A stretch of DNA of 32,000 bases from Cuniculiplasma divulgatum (GTDB taxonomy: Archaea > Thermoplasmatota > Thermoplasmata > Thermoplasmatales > Thermoplasmataceae), in assembly GCF_900083515.1 (NCBI RefSeq), contig NZ_LT671858.1, positions 570,001 to 602,000 of the forward strand. Reading direction: 5' to 3'. The notes beneath the pieces were generated by a model. That model was not told the DNA's origin, searched no databases, and saw nothing but the letters and a program-made list of their open reading frames with translations. The position numbers were made by a program, and so were the translations under genes. This document shows, piece after piece, positions 3,067 to 31,931 of the stretch. Positions within the stretch are counted from its first letter, which is position 1. Each line of letters begins with the position of its first letter.

Positions 3067-5457
3067 ATGGAATTGAAACCAGTAGAAACAGAAATTAAAA
3101 AGTCCTATCTCGAATATGCAATGAGTGTAATCGTAAGCAGGGCAATCCCGGATGTTAGGGATGGATTGAAGCCAGTACAGAGAAGGATACTCTATTCAAT
3201 GTATGAAAACAATTTCACACATGACAAACCATACAGAAAGTCTGCAAGGATAGTTGGGGAGGCCATGGGTAAATATCATCCTCACGGGGACAGTGCAATT
3301 TATGATGCAATGGCAAGGATGGCGCAGGAATTCTCCCTGAGATATACACTTATTGATGGGCAGGGAAATTTTGGATCAATAGATGGAGATGCACCTGCTG
3401 CAATGAGGTATACAGAAGCAAGAACAAACCAGCTTGCAGAGGAGATGCTTAAGGATATAGACAAGAACACAGTACCGTTCAGGCTGAACTTTGACGGCTC
3501 CCTGCAGGAACCTGATTATCTTCCATCGGTAGTGCCAAATCTTCTAATAAATGGAAGTTCAGGAATAGCGGTGGGTATGGCTACCAACCTTCTTCCGCAC
3601 AATCTTACAGAGGTTGGAAATGGGATCATAGAACTTGTTAAGAATCCTGAGGCAACTGTAGAGGATCTGCTAAAGCATCTGAAGGGGCCAGATTTTCCAG
3701 GTGGTGGAATAATCTGGATGACAGAGGATTTGAAGAGGGCATACGAAACTGGAAGAGGCAAGGTCATATGTCGTGGAGAGGTCAATGCTGAGGATAAGAA
3801 AAGGATTGTAATTACAAGTCTACCATACGGTGTTAATAAGGTAACATTCCTCGAGAACGTTGTAAGACATGTTGATGATGGAAAGATAGAGGGAATTACT
3901 GACGTGAGGGATGAAAGCAACAGGGAAGGGATGAGAATAGTAATAAAAATCAGGGATGAGGACCGGAAAGGACTCATACTGAACCAGCTCTATTCAAAGA
4001 CTGAACTGGAGCAGAGCATTAGCATTAACAATCTGGTTCTTCTAAACAATGAGCCAAGGCAGATGAACCTCAAGGAGTTAATGAAAAGCTACATAGATCA
4101 CAGATTAAAGGTTATCCTGAAAAGAAGCCAGTTTGATTATGATAAGCTAAAGGAGAGGGAACATGTACTGCTTGGGCTGGAGAAGGCCATAGAACAGCTT
4201 GATCTGGTAATATCCCTGATCAGAGGGAGCAGGGAAACAACTGAGGCAAGAACAAAATTAATGCAATCACTGGAATTAACGGAAATTCAGGCAAACGCCA
4301 TTCTTGACATGAGATTGCAAAGACTGACCTCACTGGAGCATGAAAAAATAAAGAAGGAGTTAGAGGAAACATTCAACGAACTGAAAAGGCTCAGCAATAT
4401 AATAAATAATGAAAGTGAGAGGGATAAAATTCTCATAGATGAAATACAGTACCTGATTAAGAAATACGGTGACGAAAGAAGAACCAAAGTTCAGATAGGT
4501 GGTCATGTCAATCTTTCAGAGGATCAGACAATCCCCGTTGAGGAGAGTGTCATAATACTAACAGAGAAAGGCTTCATCAAGAGGGTAACACTTGACGAAT
4601 ACCGCGCTCAGAAGAGAGGCGGTAAGGGTGTGCAGACAAGCGTGAGAGACGAAGATCAGGTGAGATCGCTTATTCACTGCAGTTCCCATGATAACGTTCT
4701 CTTTTTCACAAACACAGGAAGGGTATTCAAGATAAAGGCTTACAGGATAGAGAGCAAGAGCAGAACAGGGGTAGGAGTGATCGGTTCAGCATTCCTCAGG
4801 CTTGCAGAGAGTGAAAGATTAACAGAAGTTCTCAAATTTGAGGAAAGTGAGGGAGCATTCCTTATCATGGCAACCAGAGGTGGCTATATTAAAAAGACAT
4901 CTGTGGAGGATTTTGCAAATATCAACTCAGCGGGAATCAGGGCAATAAACCTTGAGGATGGAGATGAACTTGTATCTGCGTTCATATTAGAATCCGATCA
5001 TGATATTGTTGTAATATCTAGCAATGGAAAGGCAGCACGTTTCAGATCAGATGAGATCAGGGCCACAGGAAGGACGTCCAGGGGTGTCATATCAATGAGA
5101 GTTCAGGGAAATGAGTTTGTGATCAAGGCCTTCGCCATTGAATCAGGTCAGAACATACTGACTGTATCCTCAAGGGGAATTGGAAAGAGAACAGAGGAAA
5201 ATGAGTTCACCAGTCATCACAGAGGAAGCATGGGAGTGAAGGTTATGAAGATCACTGAGAAGACTGGAAAGATAGTGGATGCCATTCCTGTAAATGAAAA
5301 TGACGAGATCATAATAATGACAAGAAATGAACAGACCATTAGAATCAGGGCTTCAACAATAAGAGAGGTGAGCAGAAACTCCCAGGGTGTGAAACTTATG
5401 GATGTAGGTGAGGATGATGAGGTCATTTCAGTTGGAAAAGTGGAGCTGGAACAATGA
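3067..5457 (+). CDS. gyrA: DNA gyrase subunit A
   Basis: RAIPDVRDGLKPVQRRILY, the HPHGDSAIYDAMARMAQ motif, active-site AAMRYTEAR, and a C-terminal beta-pinwheel repeat region. Starts 10 nt after gyrB. Confidence 0.97.
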   Translation: MELKPVETEIKKSYLEYAMSVIVSRAIPDVRDGLKPVQRRILYSMYENNFTHDKPYRKSARIVGEAMGKYHPHGDSAIYDAMARMAQEFSLRYTLIDGQGNFGSIDGDAPAAMRYTEARTNQLAEEMLKDIDKNTVPFRLNFDGSLQEPDYLPSVVPNLLINGSSGIAVGMATNLLPHNLTEVGNGIIELVKNPEATVEDLLKHLKGPDFPGGGIIWMTEDLKRAYETGRGKVICRGEVNAEDKKRIVITSLPYGVNKVTFLENVVRHVDDGKIEGITDVRDESNREGMRIVIKIRDEDRKGLILNQLYSKTELEQSISINNLVLLNNEPRQMNLKELMKSYIDHRLKVILKRSQFDYDKLKEREHVLLGLEKAIEQLDLVISLIRGSRETTEARTKLMQSLELTEIQANAILDMRLQRLTSLEHEKIKKELEETFNELKRLSNIINNESERDKILIDEIQYLIKKYGDERRTKVQIGGHVNLSEDQTIPVEESVIILTEKGFIKRVTLDEYRAQKRGGKGVQTSVRDEDQVRSLIHCSSHDNVLFFTNTGRVFKIKAYRIESKSRTGVGVIGSAFLRLAESERLTEVLKFEESEGAFLIMATRGGYIKKTSVEDFANINSAGIRAINLEDGDELVSAFILESDHDIVVISSNGKAARFRSDEIRATGRTSRGVISMRVQGNEFVIKAFAIESGQNILTVSSRGIGKRTEENEFTSHHRGSMGVKVMKITEKTGKIVDAIPVNENDEIIIMTRNEQTIRIRASTIREVSRNSQGVKLMDVGEDDEVISVGKVELEQ

Positions 5458-6377
5458 GGAAACTGTATCTAGCAGGGACAGGAAACGTTTCCAAAAACCT
5501 CCTATCACTTATTTCTAACCTAAATTCTGATATAAAGATCATGGGGATCGAGAATTCAAGAGGTCAGCTATTCTCAGAAGAAAGTCTCTCCATGGCTGAT
5601 ATCAATAATTTCATGAAATCACCACAGGACTACAGGAAATCAGTGAATATCAGTAAGATGGATTTTGATATTTATGTGGACATGAGGACAGCATCAAAAA
5701 ATGGTGAAAGAGAAAGGGATGATTATATCACTCTGATGAAAAATGGTAAGCACATTGTAACAGCCAACAAATCTGGACTTGCAAACTTCTTTCCTGAAAT
5801 AGGAAAAGCATCCTCAGAATTTGACAAAAAGCTCTATTTCGAGGCAACAGTTGCAGGCGGTCTGCCAGTATTCTCACTCACTAGAAGCAGTTTTCCATCA
5901 TTCACTGTAAACAGTTTCACAGGTGTTGTGAATCTTACATCGAATTTTATAATGAAGAAGGTAAACGATGGAATGAATCTTGAAGAGGCCAAAAGGAAAG
6001 CTATGGAAGAGGGTGTTGCAGAAACAGATATGACTGATGATCTGGATGGCACAGATTCCGCAAGAAAGGCAGTGATTATAGCAAATTCCCTTTTCCATAA
6101 ACCAATGAGGCTGAAGGACCTGAAATACTCCGGAATCGATGAAAATAATATTAAAAAGAACGAAATGCTGCTCGCAAAAATCTCAATGAATAAGGAGTTT
6201 AGTGTTGAATCACGGGTATTCACACTGAACAGTGAAGATCCATTCCTGAAACTTGCACCAATGGGTATGGCATGCAGTATCGGGTTTAAAGAAAGGAATC
6301 CTGTATATATATCAGAGGATATGGATGGACCTCTTGAAACCGCGGGGGGAGTTTTAAGCGATATTTTATCTGTTTAG
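5454..6377 (+). CDS. hom: Homoserine dehydrogenase
   Basis: N-terminal LAGTGNVSKNL dinucleotide-binding loop, TANKSGLA, FEATVAGGLPV and DLDGTDSARKAVIIAN motifs. ATGA overlap with the gyrA stop. Confidence 0.8.
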   Translation: MRKLYLAGTGNVSKNLLSLISNLNSDIKIMGIENSRGQLFSEESLSMADINNFMKSPQDYRKSVNISKMDFDIYVDMRTASKNGERERDDYITLMKNGKHIVTANKSGLANFFPEIGKASSEFDKKLYFEATVAGGLPVFSLTRSSFPSFTVNSFTGVVNLTSNFIMKKVNDGMNLEEAKRKAMEEGVAETDMTDDLDGTDSARKAVIIANSLFHKPMRLKDLKYSGIDENNIKKNEMLLAKISMNKEFSVESRVFTLNSEDPFLKLAPMGMACSIGFKERNPVYISEDMDGPLETAGGVLSDILSV

Positions 6378-16123: not shown

Positions 16124-16322
16124 AGAATTACATTGTTTTAAGTTTTTTAAGGTTTCTCAAACATATGCAACTGTTTGGAATGTTTAGAATTTATAAACAG
16201 GTTTCTTTATCACGCCTAAAAAATCCCACTTCAACTGACAGAACAGAGTCACTGTTAAATAGTTTTATCTAATTCAGAACCTACGGGGACATGGGGTAAT
16301 CAGGCATCCTATTGGGCTCCAG

Positions 16323-16390
16323 TCAGGTTTTGATTAGAAACGGGTCAACTGATATGGTGATGATTGACTGGAACTATGAACCGGGAAGAG
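16323..16390 (+). ncRNA. tRNA-Trp intron with box C/D guide RNA architecture
   Basis: Box C-like tTGATTA 16330-16336, 12-nt spacer, box D' CTGA 16349-16352, 5-nt loop, box C' GTGATGA 16357-16363, 12-nt spacer, box D-like ATGA 16376-16379. The spacers are complementary to the anticodon-loop and position-39 regions of the exons. Confidence 0.65.
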
Positions 16391-16404
16391 ACCCGCAGAT
16401 CTGG

Positions 16405-16425
16405 GTTCAAATCCCAGTGTCCCCA
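16405..16425 (+). repeat. attL: 21-bp direct repeat (3' end of tRNA-Trp)
   Basis: GTTCAAATCCCAGTGTCCCCA is identical to 24576-24596. Confidence 0.9.
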
Positions 16426-17762: not shown

Positions 17763-17927
17763 ATGACAACGATTAACCTGGCCCCTCTCAAGCAGAAAGC
17801 GTTAAACTTCCCTGAACCCGTAAAGTCCTTAATCTTGAGTGAACCTGACATGATCGATGCACAAGACTTCATCTCTAAACTGGGCACTTGGCTGAAACTC
17901 GTCAACATGGAGGAAAGGCAAAAATGA
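17763..17927 (+). CDS. Small hypothetical protein (54 aa) translationally coupled to PrimPol
   Basis: ATG 17763 to TGA 17925-17927, MTTINLAPLKQKALNFPEP.... The stop overlaps the ATG at 17924 of the next gene (ATGA). Confidence 0.4.
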   Translation: MTTINLAPLKQKALNFPEPVKSLILSEPDMIDAQDFISKLGTWLKLVNMEERQK

Positions 17928-18931
17928 AAAAAGAAGAGATTGGTGATTCGCATGAGTACAATTGTCACAGCCTATTAAACTTTACGAAGTCGGTTAAAAA
18001 GCCCACTCAACAGGCCTTAGCCGTTGAATATGCAAAGATGGGATTCCCGGTTTTTCCATGTTATTCGAACAAGGCCCCAATAGTGGATCATTTTTTAGGT
18101 TTTATGCGTGGCCTAAAAGATGCCACGACTGACCCTAAGGTAATAGCAAAAACATGGCACAAATACCCGAATGCCGGGATCGGCTTTGCTCTCCCGAAAA
18201 CCCTCATAGTTTTAGATTGCGACGTCGAAAAAAATTCGCAAAAAAATCCAGTACTGTATAATGGAGAACCTAACATTATCGGGCTGAAATCATTCCAGAA
18301 GCTTGTTTTGGATTGTAACATTTCTGGATATTATCTTAATACACTTTCGTTGAAGACCCAGTCAGGAGGGCGGCATTTCTATTATAGGATGCCAGATTGT
18401 ATTAGTTCGTTCAGTCACACAAGAGCCATGGAAGGGCTCGACATCAAGGGTTATGGAGGCTATGTTATCCTTCCAAATTCCCAGGGTCAATACGGTAGGT
18501 ATGAATTTCTAAACCTGACTGAGATAAAGCCCATACCTGAGGGTTTGCTGAAATGGGTGCTCCGAGTTGGAGGAAAAAAAGAGGCAATTAACAGGGTTTT
18601 TCATGAGACTCAGGAAATTGAGGATCCCAGAGTCGAAGAATTTGTTAATGAAATTCTGCCCGCATGGAATAGCGCCATAAGAGCGCACCTTGGAAACGAC
18701 TTTCGAATGGCAATAGCGGGGACTCTATACCATTACGGATGGCCTAAAACCATGGCTAAACGTGCTATGCGAATGCTAATCGACCACTCTGAGATACCAG
18801 GACTTTCAGACAAAAACGCAGTCGAATACACTTATAAAAACGGTGCAGCGGGTAAGCCAATCCGAGGATTTAGCACACTGGAGAAATTAATAAACAAATT
18901 GGAAGGTGAAGAACATGACAGCAAAAACTGA
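17924..18931 (+). CDS. Bifunctional DNA primase-polymerase (archaeo-eukaryotic primase superfamily PrimPol domain)
   Basis: GFPVFPCYSNKAP, LDCDVE (DxD metal site) and QSGGRHFYY (sGGxH) motifs. I prefer ATG 17924 (ATGA coupling) over the track start 17888. Confidence 0.85.
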   Translation: MKKEEIGDSHEYNCHSLLNFTKSVKKPTQQALAVEYAKMGFPVFPCYSNKAPIVDHFLGFMRGLKDATTDPKVIAKTWHKYPNAGIGFALPKTLIVLDCDVEKNSQKNPVLYNGEPNIIGLKSFQKLVLDCNISGYYLNTLSLKTQSGGRHFYYRMPDCISSFSHTRAMEGLDIKGYGGYVILPNSQGQYGRYEFLNLTEIKPIPEGLLKWVLRVGGKKEAINRVFHETQEIEDPRVEEFVNEILPAWNSAIRAHLGNDFRMAIAGTLYHYGWPKTMAKRAMRMLIDHSEIPGLSDKNAVEYTYKNGAAGKPIRGFSTLEKLINKLEGEEHDSKN

Positions 18932-22910: not shown

Positions 22911-23043
22911 AAGACCCCCTTCCCCCCTTACTTAAGTTAATGTCCTCATTGTCATTTTCGTGTTTAAATTTCTGGACCGTCCCAAAGTTTTTAGGAAAAA
23001 TCTCCGCATCTTCATGGCTATGCATTCCCATTTGTTTATGCCT

Positions 23044-23074
23044 TTATGATGAAATGTAAAAAATGATTCAAATT
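23044..23074 (+). repeat. 31-bp direct repeat, copy 1
   Basis: TTATGATGAAATGTAAAAAATGATTCAAATT is identical to 23135-23165. Confidence 0.85.
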
Positions 23075-23134
23075 TTCATTTTCGATTTCTTCACCATCTT
23101 TTTCATGTCCATTCTCTCTTAATTATATACGCTC

Positions 23135-23165
23135 TTATGATGAAATGTAAAAAATGATTCAAATT
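23135..23165 (+). repeat. 31-bp direct repeat, copy 2
   Basis: Identical to 23044-23074, 91 bp periodicity, just downstream of the integrase stop. Confidence 0.85.
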
Positions 23166-23195
23166 GATTTTTTCGGTTAGTTAGTTGACCGGTTG

Positions 23196-24524
23196 TCAGG
23201 AAGGCAACTTGACGACTGCCTTATCTCCCTTGGGATATATCTGCACGAGTTCCCATCCCTTGTTGAGATAGATTTCGAGTTCTCTTTCAGGTATGGTCTT
23301 ATGCCGGTTCCCATTGTTGAGGATCTCCGCCTTCTTATCCCTGAATATCTCTTTCAATCTCTCCTGGAGGTCATCTAAATCGAGTGCCATAAGGTCTTCT
23401 TTCTCCTTGTCAGAAAGGTTCGTTCCGTAAGCAGTTTCCAGAATCATTATTGCAGTCTCCTTCATTGTATTGGTAGTTATCTTAGCTACATCCTCTTCTT
23501 TGATTCCGTGGTCCTCAGTCTCAAGGAACTTAAGGCATTTGACGTAACTTGACCTCATATCCTCTATTGTGTCGGAAGTAAGCATTTTGTCAAGAGTATA
23601 TCTATGTTCCATGGATCCGGAATGCCCCATCATAAAAACTCTGTAGTCGTGCATGATAAATCCTTTTGATTCCGCGAGCATCAGTTGGGTGTCAAAATAG
23701 CTTCTAAGTATATATGGCCTATTTTCGAATCCGGCCGATCTTATACTCTGTCTTATCAGATCACCTATATTTATAGTGGTTATGTGCTTTTTTCTAAGAG
23801 CTAATTTTGAGGGTACAATTATAGGCGATTCTGCCATGAGAACCTCGCCTTCAATCATTCTTTTCTGTAAATAGGCAGACAAATAGCCAGTTCCTTCGGG
23901 GCCGATGAATGTAATGTACGGCTTGCGGGTTTTGCTAAGTTCAGGTCTTACCTTGACCATTGTTACTTCATTTTCGAAGGAAACTGTCTTAGAATCAACG
24001 TCAACGTGCATCTCGGGAAGATCTCTAATTTCCAGTCCTCCCTTTCCCATGTAGTCGCCTAATGCCTCCAGCCTTAGGCCAGAGAATGCAATTAGCGCGC
24101 ATGCAGTTTTTGATCTTGCATCGCCAACTGAAAATATTTTCTTTAATGATTGCTGAGAAGGGATACTCTCATTTCCATACCTGGTATTAACTCCCGCGTT
24201 TTTGATTTTTAGTTTTCTTATTAGTTTTCTGCCATTGAATGAAAGCCACGATTTAACGGCCTTAACGCTTGAATTTATATAATTGGGAGAAAGTCCCCTA
24301 TCCTCCTCGGTGCCAATGAAGTCCGTCAGCAGATTGGTTAAGGATTCATCTGATAGTTCCAGAAGATCCATGGGAGTTTTACTGACCTCGTTGCAGAAGG
24401 AACCGAGTCTTCTCAAAATTACATCAGCAGTTAGCTGCGACCCTCTTGCGCAGTCTCTAAACCATCTTTCGACTTGTTTTTCCTTCAAGAGATCAATATA
24501 TTTTTTCCCCCTTCCAGTCACCAT
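23196..24524 (-). CDS. int: Tyrosine recombinase / integrase (intact, non-split type)
   Basis: Box I AFSGLRLEAL, box II-like YILRSYFDTQL ... MMGHSGSMEHRYT. The 5' end lies 52 nt from attR. Confidence 0.88.
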   Translation of the reverse strand: MVTGRGKKYIDLLKEKQVERWFRDCARGSQLTADVILRRLGSFCNEVSKTPMDLLELSDESLTNLLTDFIGTEEDRGLSPNYINSSVKAVKSWLSFNGRKLIRKLKIKNAGVNTRYGNESIPSQQSLKKIFSVGDARSKTACALIAFSGLRLEALGDYMGKGGLEIRDLPEMHVDVDSKTVSFENEVTMVKVRPELSKTRKPYITFIGPEGTGYLSAYLQKRMIEGEVLMAESPIIVPSKLALRKKHITTINIGDLIRQSIRSAGFENRPYILRSYFDTQLMLAESKGFIMHDYRVFMMGHSGSMEHRYTLDKMLTSDTIEDMRSSYVKCLKFLETEDHGIKEEDVAKITTNTMKETAIMILETAYGTNLSDKEKEDLMALDLDDLQERLKEIFRDKKAEILNNGNRHKTIPERELEIYLNKGWELVQIYPKGDKAVVKLPS

Positions 24525-24575: not shown

Positions 24576-24596
24576 GTTCAAATCCCAGTGTCCCCA
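24576..24596 (+). repeat. attR: 21-bp direct repeat (copy of the tRNA-Trp 3' end)
   Basis: GTTCAAATCCCAGTGTCCCCA is identical to 16405-16425. Flanking bases diverge on both sides. Confidence 0.9.
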
Positions 24597-24853: not shown

Positions 24854-25372
24854 TTGTCAATCAAGAAGTCAGGCTACGAGGATGAAATTTTAAAATTCAT
24901 CTATACAAATTACCAAGACGTAGAGATTCCAATGACTAAACTTCAAGATATTATAACTTCATATTATACTGTAACTAGCTCAGCGGGTTCATTATATGAA
25001 AGCGGGTTGGTCAATAAACGAGAGGTTGTCTCTGGAAGAAAAACGATAATGATCTCTTTGACTAAAAAAGGAAGAGAAGTTGCAGAGCAACTCAAAAGAG
25101 CTGAGGCAATTTCACAAGGCAGGAAGCTCTCATCCACAGAAAGGTACGCTGTAATTCTATATCTATACCGAAACGGATCAAAGAATCTGAAGGAAATCAA
25201 TGAAGATCTTCCAGGATCAACTGAAATTTTAAGGGAGCTTGAAAAACTGAATGTTGTAAAGCAGGAAATCAAAAGTTCAAAATATCCTCAGGAAACAACG
25301 TTGAGTTTGACTGAGAAGGGAATGGAGATTGGATTAAGATTTGAGGAATTGGAGAGGATGATGGAAGAATGA
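24854..25372 (+). CDS. Transcription regulator with two winged-helix modules
   Basis: TTG start. EILKFIYTNYQ...MISLTKKGREVAEQLKRAE, then ILYLYRNGSKNLKEI...TLSLTEKGMEIGLRFEELERMMEE. An AGTATG/CATACT inverted pair and duplicated TATTAAT (24816-24849) sit just upstream. Confidence 0.6.
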   Translation: MSIKKSGYEDEILKFIYTNYQDVEIPMTKLQDIITSYYTVTSSAGSLYESGLVNKREVVSGRKTIMISLTKKGREVAEQLKRAEAISQGRKLSSTERYAVILYLYRNGSKNLKEINEDLPGSTEILRELEKLNVVKQEIKSSKYPQETTLSLTEKGMEIGLRFEELERMMEE

Positions 25373-25433: not shown

Positions 25434-26399
25434 ATGTTGGTAGTTAACTCATACGTCCTTGTAGGAGAAGATTCTTTCAATCCAACATTGAAAATAGTAA
25501 TAGAAGTAGAAATTAAAGTTGGGTCGGAAGTTTTAATCAATGCGTTCGGAGACTTGAATTATCATGGAAAAAAAATTGGAAGATTGGAACCTTCAACTCA
25601 AAACGTTTTTGGTTTCCCCCTCTTCGCAATAAAATCCGAACTAAAGGATCAATCAGTTAAATATAATGTGGGTTTTGAATGCAAATTAGATAAGAATGTC
25701 TTAAAATACATAAGCGATGGAAGAAAAGCGGAAAAGAATGGAGACGTAGTATTTATAGCCGAAATAAGGCTAATTTATCTTGAAAATCGAGCCTACATAA
25801 TAGAATCCAGAGTTCAAACAAATTTAGCAACGAACAACACCGCAAACATGTTATCAACTCTAAATGGTACTTCATACTTGGAAATGAGAACATACAACCC
25901 ACAAATTCCAATGACAATTAAATCATCGGATTGGATAAATGATTTTGCACCAAAACTAGGATTGGGGGAATATGAAATAATAGAAATCCCTAGATTAAAT
26001 GCTGTAAATATAAAGGAAAAATTCAGCAATTCACTTTCCGCCCTTGAGGTATCCAGGAAATACCTGTACTCTTTAAACAACGGCTCTGCAATGTCATCAC
26101 TCCGGAATTCTTTAAGGGAATTCAACGAGGCATTGAAAAATCTTGGATATAGAGACGAGAATGGAAAAAATGTGGATTACGGTAAAATATTCGATAGAAA
26201 CAAAAACAATGAAATTTTAGTTGAAACATTGCAGAAAAATCTATATAGTTCAAGCTCCAGAGGAGAAGAACCCGCAGCAGCACATATGGGTAATTCGGTT
26301 GAAGGATATGAAATCGAATCAATGATATTCATGACCTATTCATTGTACAAGATGGTTTTCGAAAAGCTTCGAGAGAAAGAGGAATCAGAGGGTGATTGA
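25434..26399 (+). CDS. Uncharacterised 321-aa protein (beta-rich N-terminal part, helical C-terminal part)
   Basis: Long ORF 61 nt after the regulator. No family recognised. The C-terminal SRGEEPAAAHMGN followed by an amphipathic helix is vaguely Abi_C/HEPN-like, but with R-x7-H spacing. Confidence 0.6.
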   Translation: MLVVNSYVLVGEDSFNPTLKIVIEVEIKVGSEVLINAFGDLNYHGKKIGRLEPSTQNVFGFPLFAIKSELKDQSVKYNVGFECKLDKNVLKYISDGRKAEKNGDVVFIAEIRLIYLENRAYIIESRVQTNLATNNTANMLSTLNGTSYLEMRTYNPQIPMTIKSSDWINDFAPKLGLGEYEIIEIPRLNAVNIKEKFSNSLSALEVSRKYLYSLNNGSAMSSLRNSLREFNEALKNLGYRDENGKNVDYGKIFDRNKNNEILVETLQKNLYSSSSRGEEPAAAHMGNSVEGYEIESMIFMTYSLYKMVFEKLREKEESEGD

Positions 26400-26403
26400 T
26401 AAT

Positions 26404-26490
26404 TATGAGACGACAAGCATAAGTTTGTCTGAAAAGGGAATGGAGATAGGAGAGATTCTAAGTAAGGTAGAGGGAATGATGGAGGAATGA
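26404..26490 (+). pseudogene. Remnant of the C-terminal wing/helix of a second wHTH regulator copy
   Basis: Translates to YETTSISLSEKGMEIGEILSKVEGMMEE*, parallel to ETTLSLTEKGMEIGLRFEELERMMEE* at the end of 24854-25372. The only possible in-frame start is GTG 26392. Confidence 0.5.
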
Positions 26491-26496
26491 TAAAAA

Positions 26497-27447
26497 ATGA
26501 AAATTTATGAATCGAGTTTCACAGAGAAAAAGCTAGAAGAAATGTATAACTTGATAAAAGAGACTGATGGATCAAAAGTACAGCTTTATGCGATTTCAGT
26601 AGAGAAAAATAAAGAAAAAGAGAAGATTTGGACCGTTAATACACTTTCAATAACAAAATCTCTCGGGGATGAAATGATTGAATCTGCAAAGGGGTATCTT
26701 ATCCAAAAAAGCCAACTCAGGATAAAGGATTTCGATTTGAAGAGCGATTTGTCGCCTGAATATTTGATTGGAAAGTTAGCTGACGATCAAGTTCCTGTCT
26801 TAAATAAAATAATTAGTGAAATGAAGAGAAGTGATAATTCTCCAATTTCATATGGAGAGTTGTCAAAATCAACTCATCTTATCGGTTTTGCGATAGAAAT
26901 AGGTGAAAAAATAACTATTTTCAATAAAGTAACAAAAGCCAGATTGTTAAATCCTAAAAAATACTTATATCTTGTAGAATCCCGTACAGGGGAGCTCACA
27001 CATCTCAAAGAAAACAATTTATTATCTATACCGAATAGCATTGACGCAATTCTATATGAGGATCCTCTGTACATTTTGAACGTCAATCATTTTCTTTCTC
27101 TGTTTGATTATGGGGAGGCTTTTACAAAATTTATAGATAATGCAAAAACCAGTTTGGCCAACATAGTGGATGATGTTCAGTATGTGATTGATGAGACCTC
27201 CCCACATATAATGGAGTTCAAGCGCCTGGCTTCTGCTTGTGCTGGTTATGTAGATAGAATAGTAAGAGAAAATACTAACCTTGAGCCTATTGCAAAATCA
27301 TATAACCTTGAAATATCATTTTCCAATGGAAAGATCTCAGTAAAGAATTCAAAGCTTAAGGATATCCTCTCATTATTAAACGGACAGGCTGTGAGAGACG
27401 AACTATTCAAAGAAAAATACCTTGCTCGTGAAAAGGAGAAGGTTTGA
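26497..27447 (+). CDS. 316-aa protein, tentatively KwaB/DUF4868-like (Kiwa defence component)
   Basis: Length and sequence pattern (LIGFAIEIGEKITIFNKVTKARLL...LSIPNSIDAILYEDPLYILNVNHFLSLFDY...ISFSNGKISVKNSKLKDILSLLNGQAVRDEL) resemble my recollection of DUF4868 proteins. Not verified by any search. Confidence 0.45.
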   Translation: MKIYESSFTEKKLEEMYNLIKETDGSKVQLYAISVEKNKEKEKIWTVNTLSITKSLGDEMIESAKGYLIQKSQLRIKDFDLKSDLSPEYLIGKLADDQVPVLNKIISEMKRSDNSPISYGELSKSTHLIGFAIEIGEKITIFNKVTKARLLNPKKYLYLVESRTGELTHLKENNLLSIPNSIDAILYEDPLYILNVNHFLSLFDYGEAFTKFIDNAKTSLANIVDDVQYVIDETSPHIMEFKRLASACAGYVDRIVRENTNLEPIAKSYNLEISFSNGKISVKNSKLKDILSLLNGQAVRDELFKEKYLAREKEKV

Positions 27448-27467
27448 ACTCACTTCAATCACTTTAT

Positions 27468-28037
27468 TTAATTAGAATAGGTACGATATCCAAAAAGGAA
27501 GAAATCATCGATTATTAAGTATGCTTTAAATTGTATATTTGATTGTACTTTTTCTCTTGAAATAATTAAAATCTGTCCACCACCGCTTGTTTTTACTTTA
27601 AAGAGGAAAGGGAATTTAATTCGAACAGTTATAATTTGATAGATTAAGCTCTCTCTCAGAAAAATAGTAAAGAATAGGATACTGATGATAGGTATTAGAA
27701 GTAACACAATTAGTTCAGTAAGATAAGAAGAAGAAAATGCTGTAACATCTAAAGTCATTACTGGTAAAACCGTAATCACAATTGTCAGGATCAATGGCCA
27801 CATCTCTGAAGCTCCTTCTCTTTCTGTCAATTCAACTTTGAATAATTTTGGATTGAATTCTTTCTTATCGTTTATGAATTTTATAAAATACACATTAATC
27901 ACTATAGATAGTGCGGTTAAAATGGTAAAAACTGCTATTAGCGAATTTTCTTTTGTTAAAAATGATACGATCATTGAGGCAATAAAAATCGGTAAAGATA
28001 CTCCAACTGAGAGGATTAAATTTAATTTAAATCCCAC
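27468..28037 (-). CDS. 4-TM membrane protein with a ~60-aa soluble beta-rich C-terminal domain
   Basis: 189 aa. Hydrophobic segments at about residues 5-27, 32-54, 79-96 and 107-128. Convergent with the KwaB-like gene, stops 20 nt apart. Confidence 0.65.
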   Translation of the reverse strand: MGFKLNLILSVGVSLPIFIASMIVSFLTKENSLIAVFTILTALSIVINVYFIKFINDKKEFNPKLFKVELTEREGASEMWPLILTIVITVLPVMTLDVTAFSSSYLTELIVLLLIPIISILFFTIFLRESLIYQIITVRIKFPFLFKVKTSGGGQILIISREKVQSNIQFKAYLIIDDFFLFGYRTYSN

Positions 28038-28121: not shown

Positions 28122-28328
28122 CTATAATAACTGCATTTCTTCCAGCAGCTCTTTTGCATTCTCATTAGCTATCCTGGATATCACATAATTGAATTTCTCC
28201 TCTAACATTGCTATAAGTTCCTCCTTTGTTTGTGCCTCTACTGAGAACTTCTTGAATATGTCATAATTCACATCAAGCTGATCCTTCCTTCTTGAGTTGT
28301 ATTCCTTGTTGAACGGATTTATCTTCAT
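28122..28328 (-). CDS. Small helical protein (68 aa), upstream of the 4-TM gene
   Basis: ORF on the same strand, 84 nt upstream of 28037. No motif recognised. Confidence 0.45.
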   Translation of the reverse strand: MKINPFNKEYNSRRKDQLDVNYDIFKKFSVEAQTKEELIAMLEEKFNYVISRIANENAKELLEEMQLL

Positions 28329-28605
28329 ACATACTGAGTAATTTAATGAGTTCTAAAATTTTATTGTTCAGGGCAACGAACACATCATTTATAATATATA
28401 TTAACACTCAACGTTTTTAATATCTATCTACATATTAATCTTATAAATCTCATGGGCTCAGATAATGGAACGTTCAGTTTCAATAACGATAGATGCTCTT
28501 GTTAATTGACTTATTGAGGCCTTCAAACATCCATATTCTTGGATGTCTTGGTTCCTAATATTTAAGCTACGGAAGATTAATATAAAAGCCACATCATATG
28601 TCAAG

Positions 28606-29199
28606 ATGGTAGAAGAAAAAGCAGTATCGTGTATCTTTCCGCATTCAGATATGGAATTTGGCGTAACAACAGATAGAAAATGGACTGAGAAAGAGAAAAA
28701 GAGTTTCAATAGGGGGGCGCTCAGGGGATTTTTATCGGATATACTTCCTGAAAGGGAATATGCTTATCATTATGCAATACACTATAAGATGACAGACAAA
28801 AACGAAGACAAGATTAAGGCAACATGGGAAGATCATAATAAAATGCTTTTTCCGATACCAAATCATTTAATGGCAAAGGGAACCAGAGTGTATTTCTTTT
28901 ATAAGAATGAGATTGTTGGAGATGCTATCATAGAAAAAGTGATCTATAATGATCATGAATCTGAACTTTCAGATGAATGGGATCCAGAGATTTACCCAAT
29001 TATAGTAAAATTCAAAAAAGGTAGTGTAAGGGTATTTCCGAATAATTCCATATCTGAAAAGGTTATGAAAAGGGTACTGACAGATAAAACTAACAAAACT
29101 CTCCCTATAGGTTATCCTGTTCTGACTGACATGGAAGATCAAAAACTACAAAAAGAGATAGCAAATGTTGTGAAATCTTACTCAATGGCATTCCTGTAA
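28606..29199 (+). CDS. Hypothetical protein with a PUA-like (ASCH/EVE-like) beta-barrel pattern
   Basis: GTRVYFFYKNEIVGDAIIEKV...YPIIVKFKKGSVRVFPN resembles ASCH/EVE cores. I chose ATG 28606 (MVEEK) over the track start 28543, whose first 21 codons look non-protein-like. Confidence 0.45.
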   Translation: MVEEKAVSCIFPHSDMEFGVTTDRKWTEKEKKSFNRGALRGFLSDILPEREYAYHYAIHYKMTDKNEDKIKATWEDHNKMLFPIPNHLMAKGTRVYFFYKNEIVGDAIIEKVIYNDHESELSDEWDPEIYPIIVKFKKGSVRVFPNNSISEKVMKRVLTDKTNKTLPIGYPVLTDMEDQKLQKEIANVVKSYSMAFL

Positions 29200-29665: not shown

Positions 29666-30541
29666 TCAATTTTCATCTAGTTTCACCTCAACTTCTTTCT
29701 TCTCGAATCTTTCCCTGAATGCTGAATCATTCAGGAACTTCCTCCTGAACTCCCTTAGGGGGAGATAATCAATGGATGAATGCAGCCTGCATTCATTGTA
29801 ATCTGTGAATGCCTTTTCTATCTCTATGGAAGCATCATTAAAGTTCCTAAACTCGTTTGGCCATATGTAATCTGTCTTGATTGAATTGTGGAACGACTCA
29901 ATGTCTCCATTGTCCTCAGGAGTGTGTTTCTGTATATATTCCAGCTTTATCCCCAGTAATTTCATGGCACTCCTGAACTCCTTCGAGATATACTGGGGAC
30001 CACTGTCTGTTCTGAGCACCAGGCCTTCTGGTACTGATCCATTGAATGCCAGTAGAACAGCATTCTCCACAGAACGTATGGCATCCCTTGCCATACATGA
30101 CCTGGAATAACGGTATCCCTGCCATTCCTTGGTGAAACAGTCCTTGATGCACATCAGATAGGTCATTCCCGATTCAGTGGGAATGTAAGTGATGTCAGTT
30201 TGCCAGAGCTGATCCGGACCATGAGGACGGAAGAGATTCCTGGCCTTTGTTCTACCCCTGTGCTTAAATGCAGGGAGGTTCAGGTTGTTATCCTTAAGAA
30301 CCTTCCTGACGGTCTTCTGGTTCACTTCTGTACCAGAATTACGAAGAACTGCCCACACTCTCCTGTATCCGTATGTTGTCCTTTCTGATGCAATATACCT
30401 GACCTTCTCTTTGATGGCTGGATCAAGCCTCTGAATGTATCTCTTCACAGGCTTGTAATAATATCCGGACAGTGAGATTCCGGATATTCTTGATATCTCC
30501 CTGAGAGATATCTGATCCTTCAGATCATCAATAACCATCAT
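29666..30541 (-). CDS. IS3-family transposase OrfB (DDE/rve integrase core)
   Basis: WQTDITYI (first D), LRTDSGPQYIS (second D), PEDNGDIESFHNSIK (E). 291 aa. Confidence 0.9.
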   Translation of the reverse strand: MMVIDDLKDQISLREISRISGISLSGYYYKPVKRYIQRLDPAIKEKVRYIASERTTYGYRRVWAVLRNSGTEVNQKTVRKVLKDNNLNLPAFKHRGRTKARNLFRPHGPDQLWQTDITYIPTESGMTYLMCIKDCFTKEWQGYRYSRSCMARDAIRSVENAVLLAFNGSVPEGLVLRTDSGPQYISKEFRSAMKLLGIKLEYIQKHTPEDNGDIESFHNSIKTDYIWPNEFRNFNDASIEIEKAFTDYNECRLHSSIDYLPLREFRRKFLNDSAFRERFEKKEVEVKLDEN

Positions 30542-30916: not shown

Positions 30917-31931
30917 GGTCAATGCAATAACATTCACAGAATCAGGATTACCACCAGATTCATCATGGATATTAACATTCAATAATGTAGAATACACATT
31001 AACAAACACATCATACACATTCCATGTAATCAATGGATCGTACTCATATCATGCAACATCAACAGATTACATGAACATATCTGGATCTGTATTAGTATAA
31101 GGTTCAAACAAACAGGTTAATCTATTATTCAGCTTGCAAATGTACGCATTAACATTTAATGAATCAGGATTACCCCAAGGATCAACATGGTATGTAAATC
31201 TATCAAATGGTATGAAGTCTGGAGCAGTATCAGGATCATACTACTCCTTTACGATAACCAATGGATCATACTCATATTCCATATCAACAACAGACAAGAT
31301 CTACGAACCAAATCCATCTTCAGGTTTATTAAAAGTGAATGGTGCATCTGTATCAGAACCAATAACATTTTCAAAGGTATTATACACAGTAACATTCAAA
31401 GAATCAGGATTACCATCCGGAATATCATGGTATGTAAAAGGTGCTGGATCAGGCAATGCTCCAGCAGGTTCTCCCATAACATTCTTATTGACCAATGGAA
31501 CATACAGATTCATAATCGCAAACACAACTGCATATTATACAACAACAGAACAGTTCTCAATAACCATGAATGGAAGGAACATCACAGAGACAGTCACATA
31601 TCTCCACTATTCATACATAACAGGAAAGATATCACCATCAGACGGAAAAGTTACAGTAAATGGTCATAAGGTAACGCTGTCTCCCACAGGATCATTGAAC
31701 CTGTCAGTGGCAGCAGGTTCCTACAACGTGATCATCTCTGCAAAGGGATACAGAACATATTATGACAATATCACGGTTACCAATGGAAAAAGCGTAAACA
31801 TAACATATGATCTTAAGAAGATCTCAAAACCAGGACTATCACCCATAGAATCAATAGCAATAGCGTCTGGAATCATAGGATCTGCTGCAGTGATTGGCGT
31901 AGTTGTATATGTATTCAAATTCAGGAAGTAA
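30917..31931 (+). pseudogene. Decayed repeat-rich surface protein gene (5' truncated by the IS, one in-frame TAA), C-terminal TM anchor
   Basis: One frame is continuous from the IS junction to 31931 apart from TAA 31098-31100. Three (I/L/V)TFxESGLPxxxxW repeats with many N-x-S/T sequons, a PEGA/CarboxypepD_reg-like module, then IAIASGIIGSAAVIGVVVYVF-KFRK. Confidence 0.6.

Follow-up and report, generated by a model that had tools for sequence, protein, structure and literature searches.

A putative divergent Kiwa gene pair in swapped, convergent order in Cuniculiplasma divulgatum and related acidophilic archaea

In the Kiwa defence system of E. coli, known from the structures 9mrg, 9mrr, 9mrx, 9mtn and 9nyu (Zhang et al., PMC11785009), a KwaA protein of ~190 amino acids (aa) and a KwaB protein of ~316 aa form a complex, and deletion of either gene abolishes defence. 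KwaA possesses four transmembrane (TM) helices and two extracellular loops, and its first intracellular loop (ICL1) and intracellular C-terminus form a six-stranded β-barrel that is the main docking surface for KwaB (PMC11785009). Canonical Kiwa also lowers conjugation, and about half of the canonical loci are carried on mobile elements; split-KwaB variants of the system tolerate changes of gene architecture and keep the folds (PMC11785009). Archaeal hosts are represented by plasmid-borne loci of the haloarchaea Halobacterium sp. BOL4-2 (pBOL4-2_105.9) and Halomarina sp. BCD28. Here we describe two genes, kwaB and kwaA-like, of the archaeon Cuniculiplasma divulgatum that probably represent Kiwa in a very divergent form. 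They lie in a 32 000-nucleotide (nt) stretch of contig NZ_LT671858.1 (positions 570 001–602 000), referred to below as the window, and coordinates are window positions unless a locus or contig is named. The Thermoplasmatales, to which this host belongs, have no cell wall. Sites with Cuniculiplasma have a pH of 1–1.5 (PMC5155288).

The locus resembles that of E. coli in having two components of matching size, a KwaA with four TM segments, a charged ICL1 and a C-terminal cytoplasmic domain, and a KwaB with an N-terminal domain followed by DUF4868; a docking-loop Asn, an I-x-I-S strand and an [RK][KR]LA motif are also common to both. It differs in sequence (14–20 % identity), in gene order, which is swapped and convergent instead of a kwaA→kwaB operon, and in the presence of accessory winged helix–turn–helix (wHTH) genes and small open reading frames (ORFs). 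The Cuniculiplasma KwaA-like protein lacks an NP motif and the H156 insert and is missed by curated KwaA hidden Markov models (HMMs), and the host is a wall-less archaeon. The haloarchaeal loci share the domain of life of the host, and the Halobacterium KwaB was the sole match of the window KwaB in a tblastn search of a plasmid collection (23 % identity, E 5e-3). The Halobacterium KwaA likewise has 189 aa, and both haloarchaeal KwaBs share with the Cuniculiplasma clade a Pro at the position of E. coli D169; these loci nevertheless have the canonical order, kwaA immediately preceding a co-directional kwaB, and both of their KwaAs keep the NP motif. In the split-KwaB variants, KwaB is divided between two genes and the operon order is kept, whereas in Cuniculiplasma the proteins are intact and order and orientation are changed.

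The KwaB and KwaA-like proteins

The first-pass annotation of the window, made from the sequence alone, had read the 316-aa protein as KwaB-like (DUF4868), and both profile and structural searches bore this out. Residues 130–302 matched Pfam PF16162 (KwaB/DUF4868) with 51.5 bits against a cut-off of 26.3, and six PADLOC KwaB models also matched (best E 1.9e-9), some of them over nearly the full length. An AlphaFold model was built from a 17-sequence alignment (mean predicted local distance difference test score, pLDDT, 81). When this model was compared with the PDB by Foldseek, the top six matches were all KwaB chains (9mrx_D, 9nyu_A and four chains of 9mtn), with E-values of 2e-8 to 1e-6, a probability of 1.00, 303–317 aligned columns and TM-scores of 0.47–0.51; the next match had an E-value of 0.02. 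Profile–profile alignment by hhalign of the archaeal KwaB family with ten canonical KwaBs gave 97.9 % probability (E 3e-13, 297 columns), compared with 0.4 % for the reversed control. Identity between the KwaBs of this clade and E. coli KwaB is 14–17 %, and searches of PDB sequences with the KwaB sequence or profile returned no KwaB, so that fold and profile–profile comparison alone succeeded there. The identical C. divulgatum protein carries the name ‘Kiwa anti-phage protein KwaB-like domain-containing protein’ under four NCBI accessions, two of which belong to genome records of C. divulgatum. A PHROG family of virus-encoded proteins was also matched (E 8e-13). A scan of species-representative genome contigs with the KwaB alignment found no relative, the region being possibly masked or absent in those contigs. 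By sequence profile and predicted fold, the 316-aa protein is a full-length KwaB.

The 189-aa protein was modelled by AlphaFold from a six-sequence alignment (pLDDT 68, predicted TM-score 0.66). Helices were placed at residues 3–27, 31–57, 79–101 and 105–127, and four hydrophobic segments were also found by Kyte–Doolittle analysis. Strands were modelled at 68–74, within a 26-residue charged, K/R-rich loop corresponding to ICL1, and at 145–150 and 155–158, within a β-rich C-terminal tail of ~60 residues that contains nine K/R and four D/E. The complete six-stranded barrel was not resolved, and pLDDT fell below 50 at the C-terminal end. Among 350 542 PDB chains searched with Foldseek, the top four matches were the KwaA chains 9mrg_B, 9mrg_A, 9mrg_D and 9mrr_D from electron cryomicroscopy (E 5e-3 to 0.27, probability 0.97–0.54, TM-scores 0.39–0.46, 157–168 columns). 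The fifth match had an E-value of 1.7, which leaves a roughly six-fold or larger gap in E-value after the KwaA chains. Comparison with solved structures, which the first-pass annotation had suggested for both proteins, thus returned KwaB and KwaA as the best PDB matches of the respective models.

For profile comparison, canonical KwaAs were taken from ten plasmid Kiwa loci, five of them from Halobacterium, Halomarina, Microvirga, Kocuria and Cytobacillus and the remaining five from Emticicia, Salmonella, Klebsiella, Dickeya and E. coli Nissle. The set was validated by the match of the Halobacterium protein to PADLOC KwaA (E 7e-26, with 15 KwaA models matched), by the match of a profile of the first five to KwaA in the PDB (E 2e-16) and by the existing kwaA annotation of four of the ten (Emticicia, Salmonella, Dickeya and E. 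coli Nissle). When the nine-member family of the 189-aa protein was aligned by hhalign with the first five KwaAs, the probability was 94.3 % (E 1e-7, 162 colinear columns; reversed control 2 %), and with all ten it was 96.4 % (E 1.1e-9, 110 columns; reversed control 0.3 %), the latter match spanning the ICL1 strand, TM3, TM4 and the tail. The soluble C-terminal domain alone gave 93.2 % (E 3e-7; reversed control 0.2 %), and cross-comparisons of the split domains gave no more than 0.3 %. Reversed and split-domain controls were used because block permutation gives a poor null for hhalign: homologous blocks stay whole and go on matching (maximum score 56.7). As the soluble C-terminal domain alone gives 93 %, the composition bias of TM segments is not the cause of the KwaA signal. 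On these alignments, the similarity to KwaA is concentrated in the predicted KwaB-docking domain. The first-pass annotation had regarded the soluble C-terminal domain as an extra feature foreign to Kiwa; it is instead a standard part of KwaA (PMC11785009) and the part of the 189-aa protein that is most clearly KwaA-homologous. Taken together, profile and model comparisons indicate that the 189-aa protein is a remote homologue (orthologue) of KwaA.

Relatives of this protein are few. A profile search of 1.84 billion protein representatives returned six clusters at 50 % identity and no bridge to canonical KwaA; the named members come from C. divulgatum and ‘Thermoplasmatales archaeon Gpl’ (G-plasma). 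Close homologues in clusters P0019 and P0020 bear the Joint Genome Institute name ‘C4-dicarboxylate transporter’, which was rejected as a likely misannotation, there being no transporter match in Pfam or NCBIfam.

Residues of functional importance in E. coli were located by hhalign mapping, using residues 7–190 of E. coli KwaA and 31–316 of E. coli KwaB as recovered from PDB alignments, whose numbering agrees with that of PMC11785009. E. coli KwaA touches KwaB through K75-Y76-N77 at the TM2/ICL1 boundary, and defence is lost when these residues are mutated (PMC11785009). They map to K59-E60-F61-N62 of the KwaA-like protein, giving a K-[FY]-N motif at the same boundary; K58, F61, N62 and P63 form the most conserved motif of the six closer KwaA-like members. 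The E. coli segment NLIAISNDVLK (164–174) aligned with QILIISREKVQ (155–165), with the I-x-I-S strand common to both, and I156 and S160 of the KwaA-like protein are invariant in the archaeal family. E. coli Y180-Y181-S182-F183 map to K171-A172-Y173-L174, with aromatic residues within one position of each other, and H156 sits in a five-residue insert that is absent from the KwaA-like protein. In KwaB, the docking loop I98-PPNSQDYY aligned with R111-SDNSPISY, placing N101 on N114. R233 aligned with K242, within a conserved F-x-[RK]-[KR]-L-A motif, and N134 with K144, Lys being the majority state at this position among canonical KwaBs.

The convergent pair in related loci

Eleven loci including the window were compared (W, L001, L003, L006, L015, L016, L019, L025, L027, L029 and L030). 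They were collected through homologues of KwaB (39–85 % identity to the window protein) and of the TM protein (28–86 %), with one locus added by a metagenome scan. The two genes were adjacent and convergent in all 11, with 3′ ends −4 to 20 nt apart. In the window, kwaB ends at 27447 and the kwaA-like stop codon occupies 27468–27470, exactly 20 nt away; in the other loci, the stop-to-stop spacing was 16, 15, 13, 6, 6, 6, 3, 20 and 6 nt, with one overlap of 4 nt. By comparison, all ten canonical loci examined, two of which are archaeal, had co-directional genes with kwaA immediately preceding kwaB. The kwaA-like gene starts with GTG, and the N-terminus MGFKLNL is conserved among its homologues. 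The membrane partner evolves faster, with a mean identity of 37 %, compared with 51 % for KwaB.

The flanking genes vary from locus to locus and include an ISL3 transposase, an AAA_21 ATPase, DruA, HerA (DUF87), NurA, D12 methyltransferases, an MmeI-like enzyme, Type III and Type I restriction–modification systems and a glycosyltransferase, so that the neighbourhoods have the usual appearance of defence islands. Because both homologues are adjacent and convergent in ten further loci whose neighbours are otherwise different, the pairing is not due to chance. The layout drawn by the first-pass annotation, with the 316-aa gene facing a four-TM 189-aa gene behind a 68-aa ORF and stops 20 nt apart, was thus recovered in the window, and the association of the two main genes that it had envisaged extends to all the loci. 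Neither of the two outcomes that it had named as refuting, a lack of significant profile or structural similarity to KwaB and a failure of the homologues to co-localize in other genomes, was therefore observed. Its statement that no TM gene precedes kwaB also held, the upstream 321-aa ORF being soluble and free of family matches.

A further homologue of the TM protein, P0028, is encoded at 388–1038 of contig k141_557912 (locus L014), where a Zn-ribbon transposase-like fragment and a 100-aa HTH gene are its neighbours.

The kwaB/kwaA-like pair represents the sole genes kept in all 11 loci, whilst wHTH genes and small ORFs come and go (window features in Table 1). The 172-aa regulator of the window matched Pfam HxlR (E 3.8e-7) and other wHTH families. 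This gene lies upstream of kwaB in the window, as do homologues in L006 (abutting kwaB), in L001 and in L016 (fused to a Zn ribbon), and a wHTH gene or its remnant precedes kwaB in 5 of the 11 loci. The window remnant was recognized by tblastn (60 % identity over 25 aa to residues 148–172 of the 172-aa protein) and by a DNA repeat, 25295–25333 being 82 % identical to 26413–26451. Remnants were also found in L003 (48 aa, 5848–5991) and L001 (an 80-aa fragment, 5390–5632). The cassette enclosed between intact gene and remnant was different each time: the window has the 321-aa orphan ORF, L001 an AAA_21 ATPase and L003 a 178-aa ORF. As unrelated cassettes separate the regulator gene from the remnant before kwaB in the window and L001, this pattern suggests that wHTH→kwaB was the ancestral arrangement and that cassettes were inserted later; the inside of the wHTH gene may be a hotspot of recombination or cassette swapping. 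The 321-aa ORF had no match in Pfam, NCBIfam, PHROGs or PADLOC and no homologue in the other loci, and is probably an inserted cassette whose membership of the module is uncertain.

Small ORFs encoding charged helical proteins of 54–76 aa occur upstream of the kwaA-like gene, on its strand, in 8 of the 11 loci. The 68-aa type of the window recurs at the same position in L003, L006 and L029 with 65–82 % identity, which exceeds the identity of the respective KwaBs in L003 (57 %) and L006 (50 %) and is comparable in L029 (82 %, compared with 85 %). It had no family match in Pfam, NCBIfam or PHROGs and is absent from L001 and L016. Unrelated small helical ORFs take its place in L019 (113–307), L025 (4103–4333), L027 (1839–2012 and 2009–2203) and L030 (1666–1830). 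A single family of small upstream ORFs was considered and rejected, the sequences falling into three types without significant mutual similarity.

Table 1. Features of the kwaB/kwaA-like region, in window coordinates
Feature	Position	Strand	Description
wHTH regulator gene	24854..25372	+	172 aa; double winged-helix, HxlR/MarR-like; recurrent accessory upstream of kwaB
Orphan ORF	25434..26399	+	321 aa; between wHTH gene and wHTH remnant
wHTH gene remnant (C-terminus)	26413..26487	+	Directly upstream of kwaB; tblastn and DNA repeat
kwaB	26497..27447	+	316 aa; N-terminal domain and DUF4868; putative DNA-binding effector
Spacer between convergent stop codons	27448..27467		20 nt; too short for separate terminators
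kwaA-like	27468..28037	-	189 aa; four TM, cytoplasmic ICL1 and C-terminal β-rich domain; putative membrane sensor/anchor
Accessory ORF	28122..28328	-	68 aa; charged, helical; upstream of kwaA-like, same strand

Readings of the gene pair

From the combined analyses, we consider it likely that the locus is a complete two-component Kiwa system in very divergent form, its two genes making up a genuine functional KwaA/KwaB pair. It agrees with Kiwa in the structure and homology of both components and in their co-localization, and departs from the canonical system in recognition by curated KwaA HMMs, in the NP motif and in operon order; it would best be filed as a divergent Kiwa subtype. Several observations weigh against this reading. 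The model of the 189-aa protein is mediocre (pLDDT 68, and below 50 in the last 30 residues), and its TM-scores to KwaA were just 0.39–0.46. Aligned on its own, the TM-rich N-terminal part reached 3.4 % by hhalign (E 0.013; reversed control 0.1 %), a weak but colinear match. Neither the protein nor its family profile matched KwaA in searches of Pfam, NCBIfam, PHROGs and PDB by phmmer and hmmsearch, and the 189-aa protein went unmatched by the 15 PADLOC KwaA models at E-values up to 1 and by the NCBIfam kwaA model up to 0.1. The profile searches that the first-pass annotation had envisaged for both proteins therefore succeeded for KwaB and failed for the membrane partner. P0022 was the sole one of the nine family members with a PADLOC match; this was marginal (E 0.014), but it is to a KwaA model (PDLC00214) and as such speaks for the relationship with KwaA. 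The NP motif after TM4, a signature derived here and not a published criterion, is invariant in 11 of 11 canonical KwaAs and absent from the KwaA-like protein, where I135-I136 are aligned with it and the family has hydrophobic residues. In KwaB, only one or two are conserved of the six residues compared that contact DNA in E. coli (N134, R142, R167, D169, K187 and R233); the other four vary among the ten canonical KwaBs too, so that their absence says little. The correlation between the pairwise identities of KwaB and of the KwaA-like protein (Pearson 0.82, 45 pairs), which supports a conserved pairing, is based on non-independent pairs. Finally, the 1.6-kb contig that encodes P0028, the most divergent TM homologue (216 aa), has no kwaB next to this gene, which is either a kwaA-like gene on its own or part of another arrangement.

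KwaB might instead have recruited a non-homologous four-TM partner that senses or acts differently, with the resemblance to KwaA being a convergence of topology and size. The failure of every curated KwaA model, the 3.4 % of the TM half, the missing NP motif, the TM-scores of ~0.4 and a gene position and orientation unlike those of all ten canonical loci are in keeping with this. We hold it to be unlikely, as the soluble C-terminal domain, which is free of composition bias, matched KwaA with 93 % (E 3e-7, compared with 0.2 % when reversed), the ten-KwaA match (96.4 %) took in the ICL1 strand, TM3, TM4 and the tail, and four KwaA chains ranked first among the 350 542 in Foldseek. Moreover, a similarly divergent KwaA is to be expected, because the archaeal KwaB is itself almost as divergent from canonical KwaB (hhalign probability 97.9 %). 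Less probable than such recruitment is a role of genuine KwaA and KwaB homologues in serving a mobile element, through the exclusion of competing elements or maintenance, instead of antiviral defence of the host. An element integrated at a tRNA gene and a copy of IS3 border the island, KwaB matches a virus-encoded PHROG family (E 8e-13), and canonical Kiwa reduces conjugation and is found on mobile elements in about half of cases (PMC11785009). The pair is nonetheless not enclosed by the att repeats of that element, and its counterparts stand among restriction–modification, DruA and HerA–NurA genes typical of host defence islands; exclusion of foreign DNA would in any case use the same mechanism.

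The least probable of these alternatives is that the two genes are independent neighbours, with KwaB acting alone or with the wHTH protein, and the TM gene and small ORF forming a separate module, for example a membrane toxin and a regulator of it. Opposite strands and presumably separate promoters speak for independence, as do the wHTH gene or remnant before kwaB in 5 of the 11 loci, the small ORF before the kwaA-like gene in 8 of the 11 and the occurrence of P0028 without an adjacent kwaB. Set against this, only the pair is universal and the wHTH and small ORFs are variable, the 3′ ends are never more than 20 nt apart, and the two proteins have diverged in parallel. In E. coli, moreover, defence needs both genes and the proteins form a complex (PMC11785009).

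If the kwaB/kwaA-like pair is a divergent Kiwa, homology with the E. coli system (PMC11785009) suggests that tetramers of the KwaA-like protein would sit in the membrane, with KwaB dimers bound to their cytoplasmic domain. The membrane would be perturbed when a virus attaches or DNA enters, and this would activate the complex, whereupon KwaB would bind the incoming DNA via its DUF4868 domain and block replication and late transcription. The two genes would be transcribed toward each other from separate promoters, kwaB usually from behind a winged-helix regulator gene and the kwaA-like gene usually from behind a small helical ORF. Their transcripts probably overlap at the 3′ ends, because at most 20 nt separate the stop codons and one locus has overlapping genes. 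Within a small clade of Cuniculiplasma/G-plasma-type acidophiles, the two genes would be inherited together, often among other defence genes.

A further, tentative possibility, to which we give considerably less credence than to the pair as such, is a separately regulated Kiwa subtype in which sensor and effector are uncoupled. Control of kwaB would fall to the wHTH protein, a third component (regulator or subunit) would come from the small helical ORF, and the convergent, abutting or overlapping 3′ ends would set or gate the KwaA:KwaB ratio by transcriptional interference or antisense pairing; the diverged TM half would be an adaptation to the membrane of a wall-less acidophile, with the docking domain retained.

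The first-pass annotation had suggested that such a module would be undescribed. Archaeal Kiwa as such is already known, as the Halobacterium and Halomarina plasmids and the KwaB-like label at NCBI attest, and the ‘extra’ domain is canonical. What was absent from the literature searched is a report of the identity or extreme divergence of the KwaA partner, of the conserved swapped, convergent arrangement or of the accessory-gene pattern. Limits are set by a function that is inferred, a clade with few members and a host that is difficult to manipulate. Within them, the locus points to a gap in detection: current defence finders would report just an orphan KwaB-like gene here, KwaA models missing its partner, and a profile of the nine-sequence family would close this gap for acidophilic archaea. 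Persistence of a Kiwa pair despite swapped order and convergent transcription would matter both for rule-based detection and for ideas of stoichiometric co-expression. Conservation of the docking domain next to a TM half diverged almost beyond recognition would mark the docking interface as the constrained part of KwaA. A KwaA in a wall-less acidophilic archaeon would also be a natural comparator, as no bacterial envelope is available there for membrane sensing to rely on.

Genomic surroundings in the window

Housekeeping genes occupy 1–15 kb of the window and include gyrB, gyrA and genes for homoserine dehydrogenase, UbiD, cytochrome bd and the small subunit of PolD. They are followed by a 141-nt tRNA gene (16285–16425) that was found by Rfam (41.4 bits) and not detected by ARAGORN, probably on account of an intron. 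A perfect 21-nt direct repeat, GTTCAAATCCCAGTGTCCCCA, is present at the 3′ end of this gene (16405–16425) and again 8.2 kb downstream (24576–24596, the right attachment site, attR). The repeat pair brackets an 8.2-kb integrated element that contains Prim-Pol (17888–18931), a 664-aa ORF and a 442-aa ORF on the minus strand (23196–24524). Searches of Pfam, NCBIfam and PHROGs gave no match for the last, which from its place at the att boundary is presumably the integrase of the element; it may belong to an unclassified archaeal integrase family. Just past its 3′ end, two tandem AT-rich copies of 77 nt (23011–23087 and 23102–23178) are 77 % identical.

The first-pass annotation had placed the gene pair in an AT-rich island beside an integrated element, with an insertion sequence (IS) nearby, and this description was accurate. 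GC content is 30–35 % over 24.5–29.5 kb, compared with 37–44 % in the remaining window, and the island with kwaB and the kwaA-like gene starts just outside attR and ends at an IS3-family transposase gene (29666–30541; rve and HTH_21 domains). Location of the pair inside the integrated element was considered and rejected, given its position outside the att repeats. The island also contains an orphan ORF of 218 aa (28543–29199, plus strand) without a library match or a homologue in the related loci; this and the 321-aa orphan could be further defence or mobile-element genes.

Beyond the transposase gene, a 56-nt repeat occurs in three copies spaced 222–240 nt apart (30921–31438), in and just upstream of an ORF with a PEGA domain (31134–31931). 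The copies probably correspond to PEGA-like domains that recur within a surface protein.

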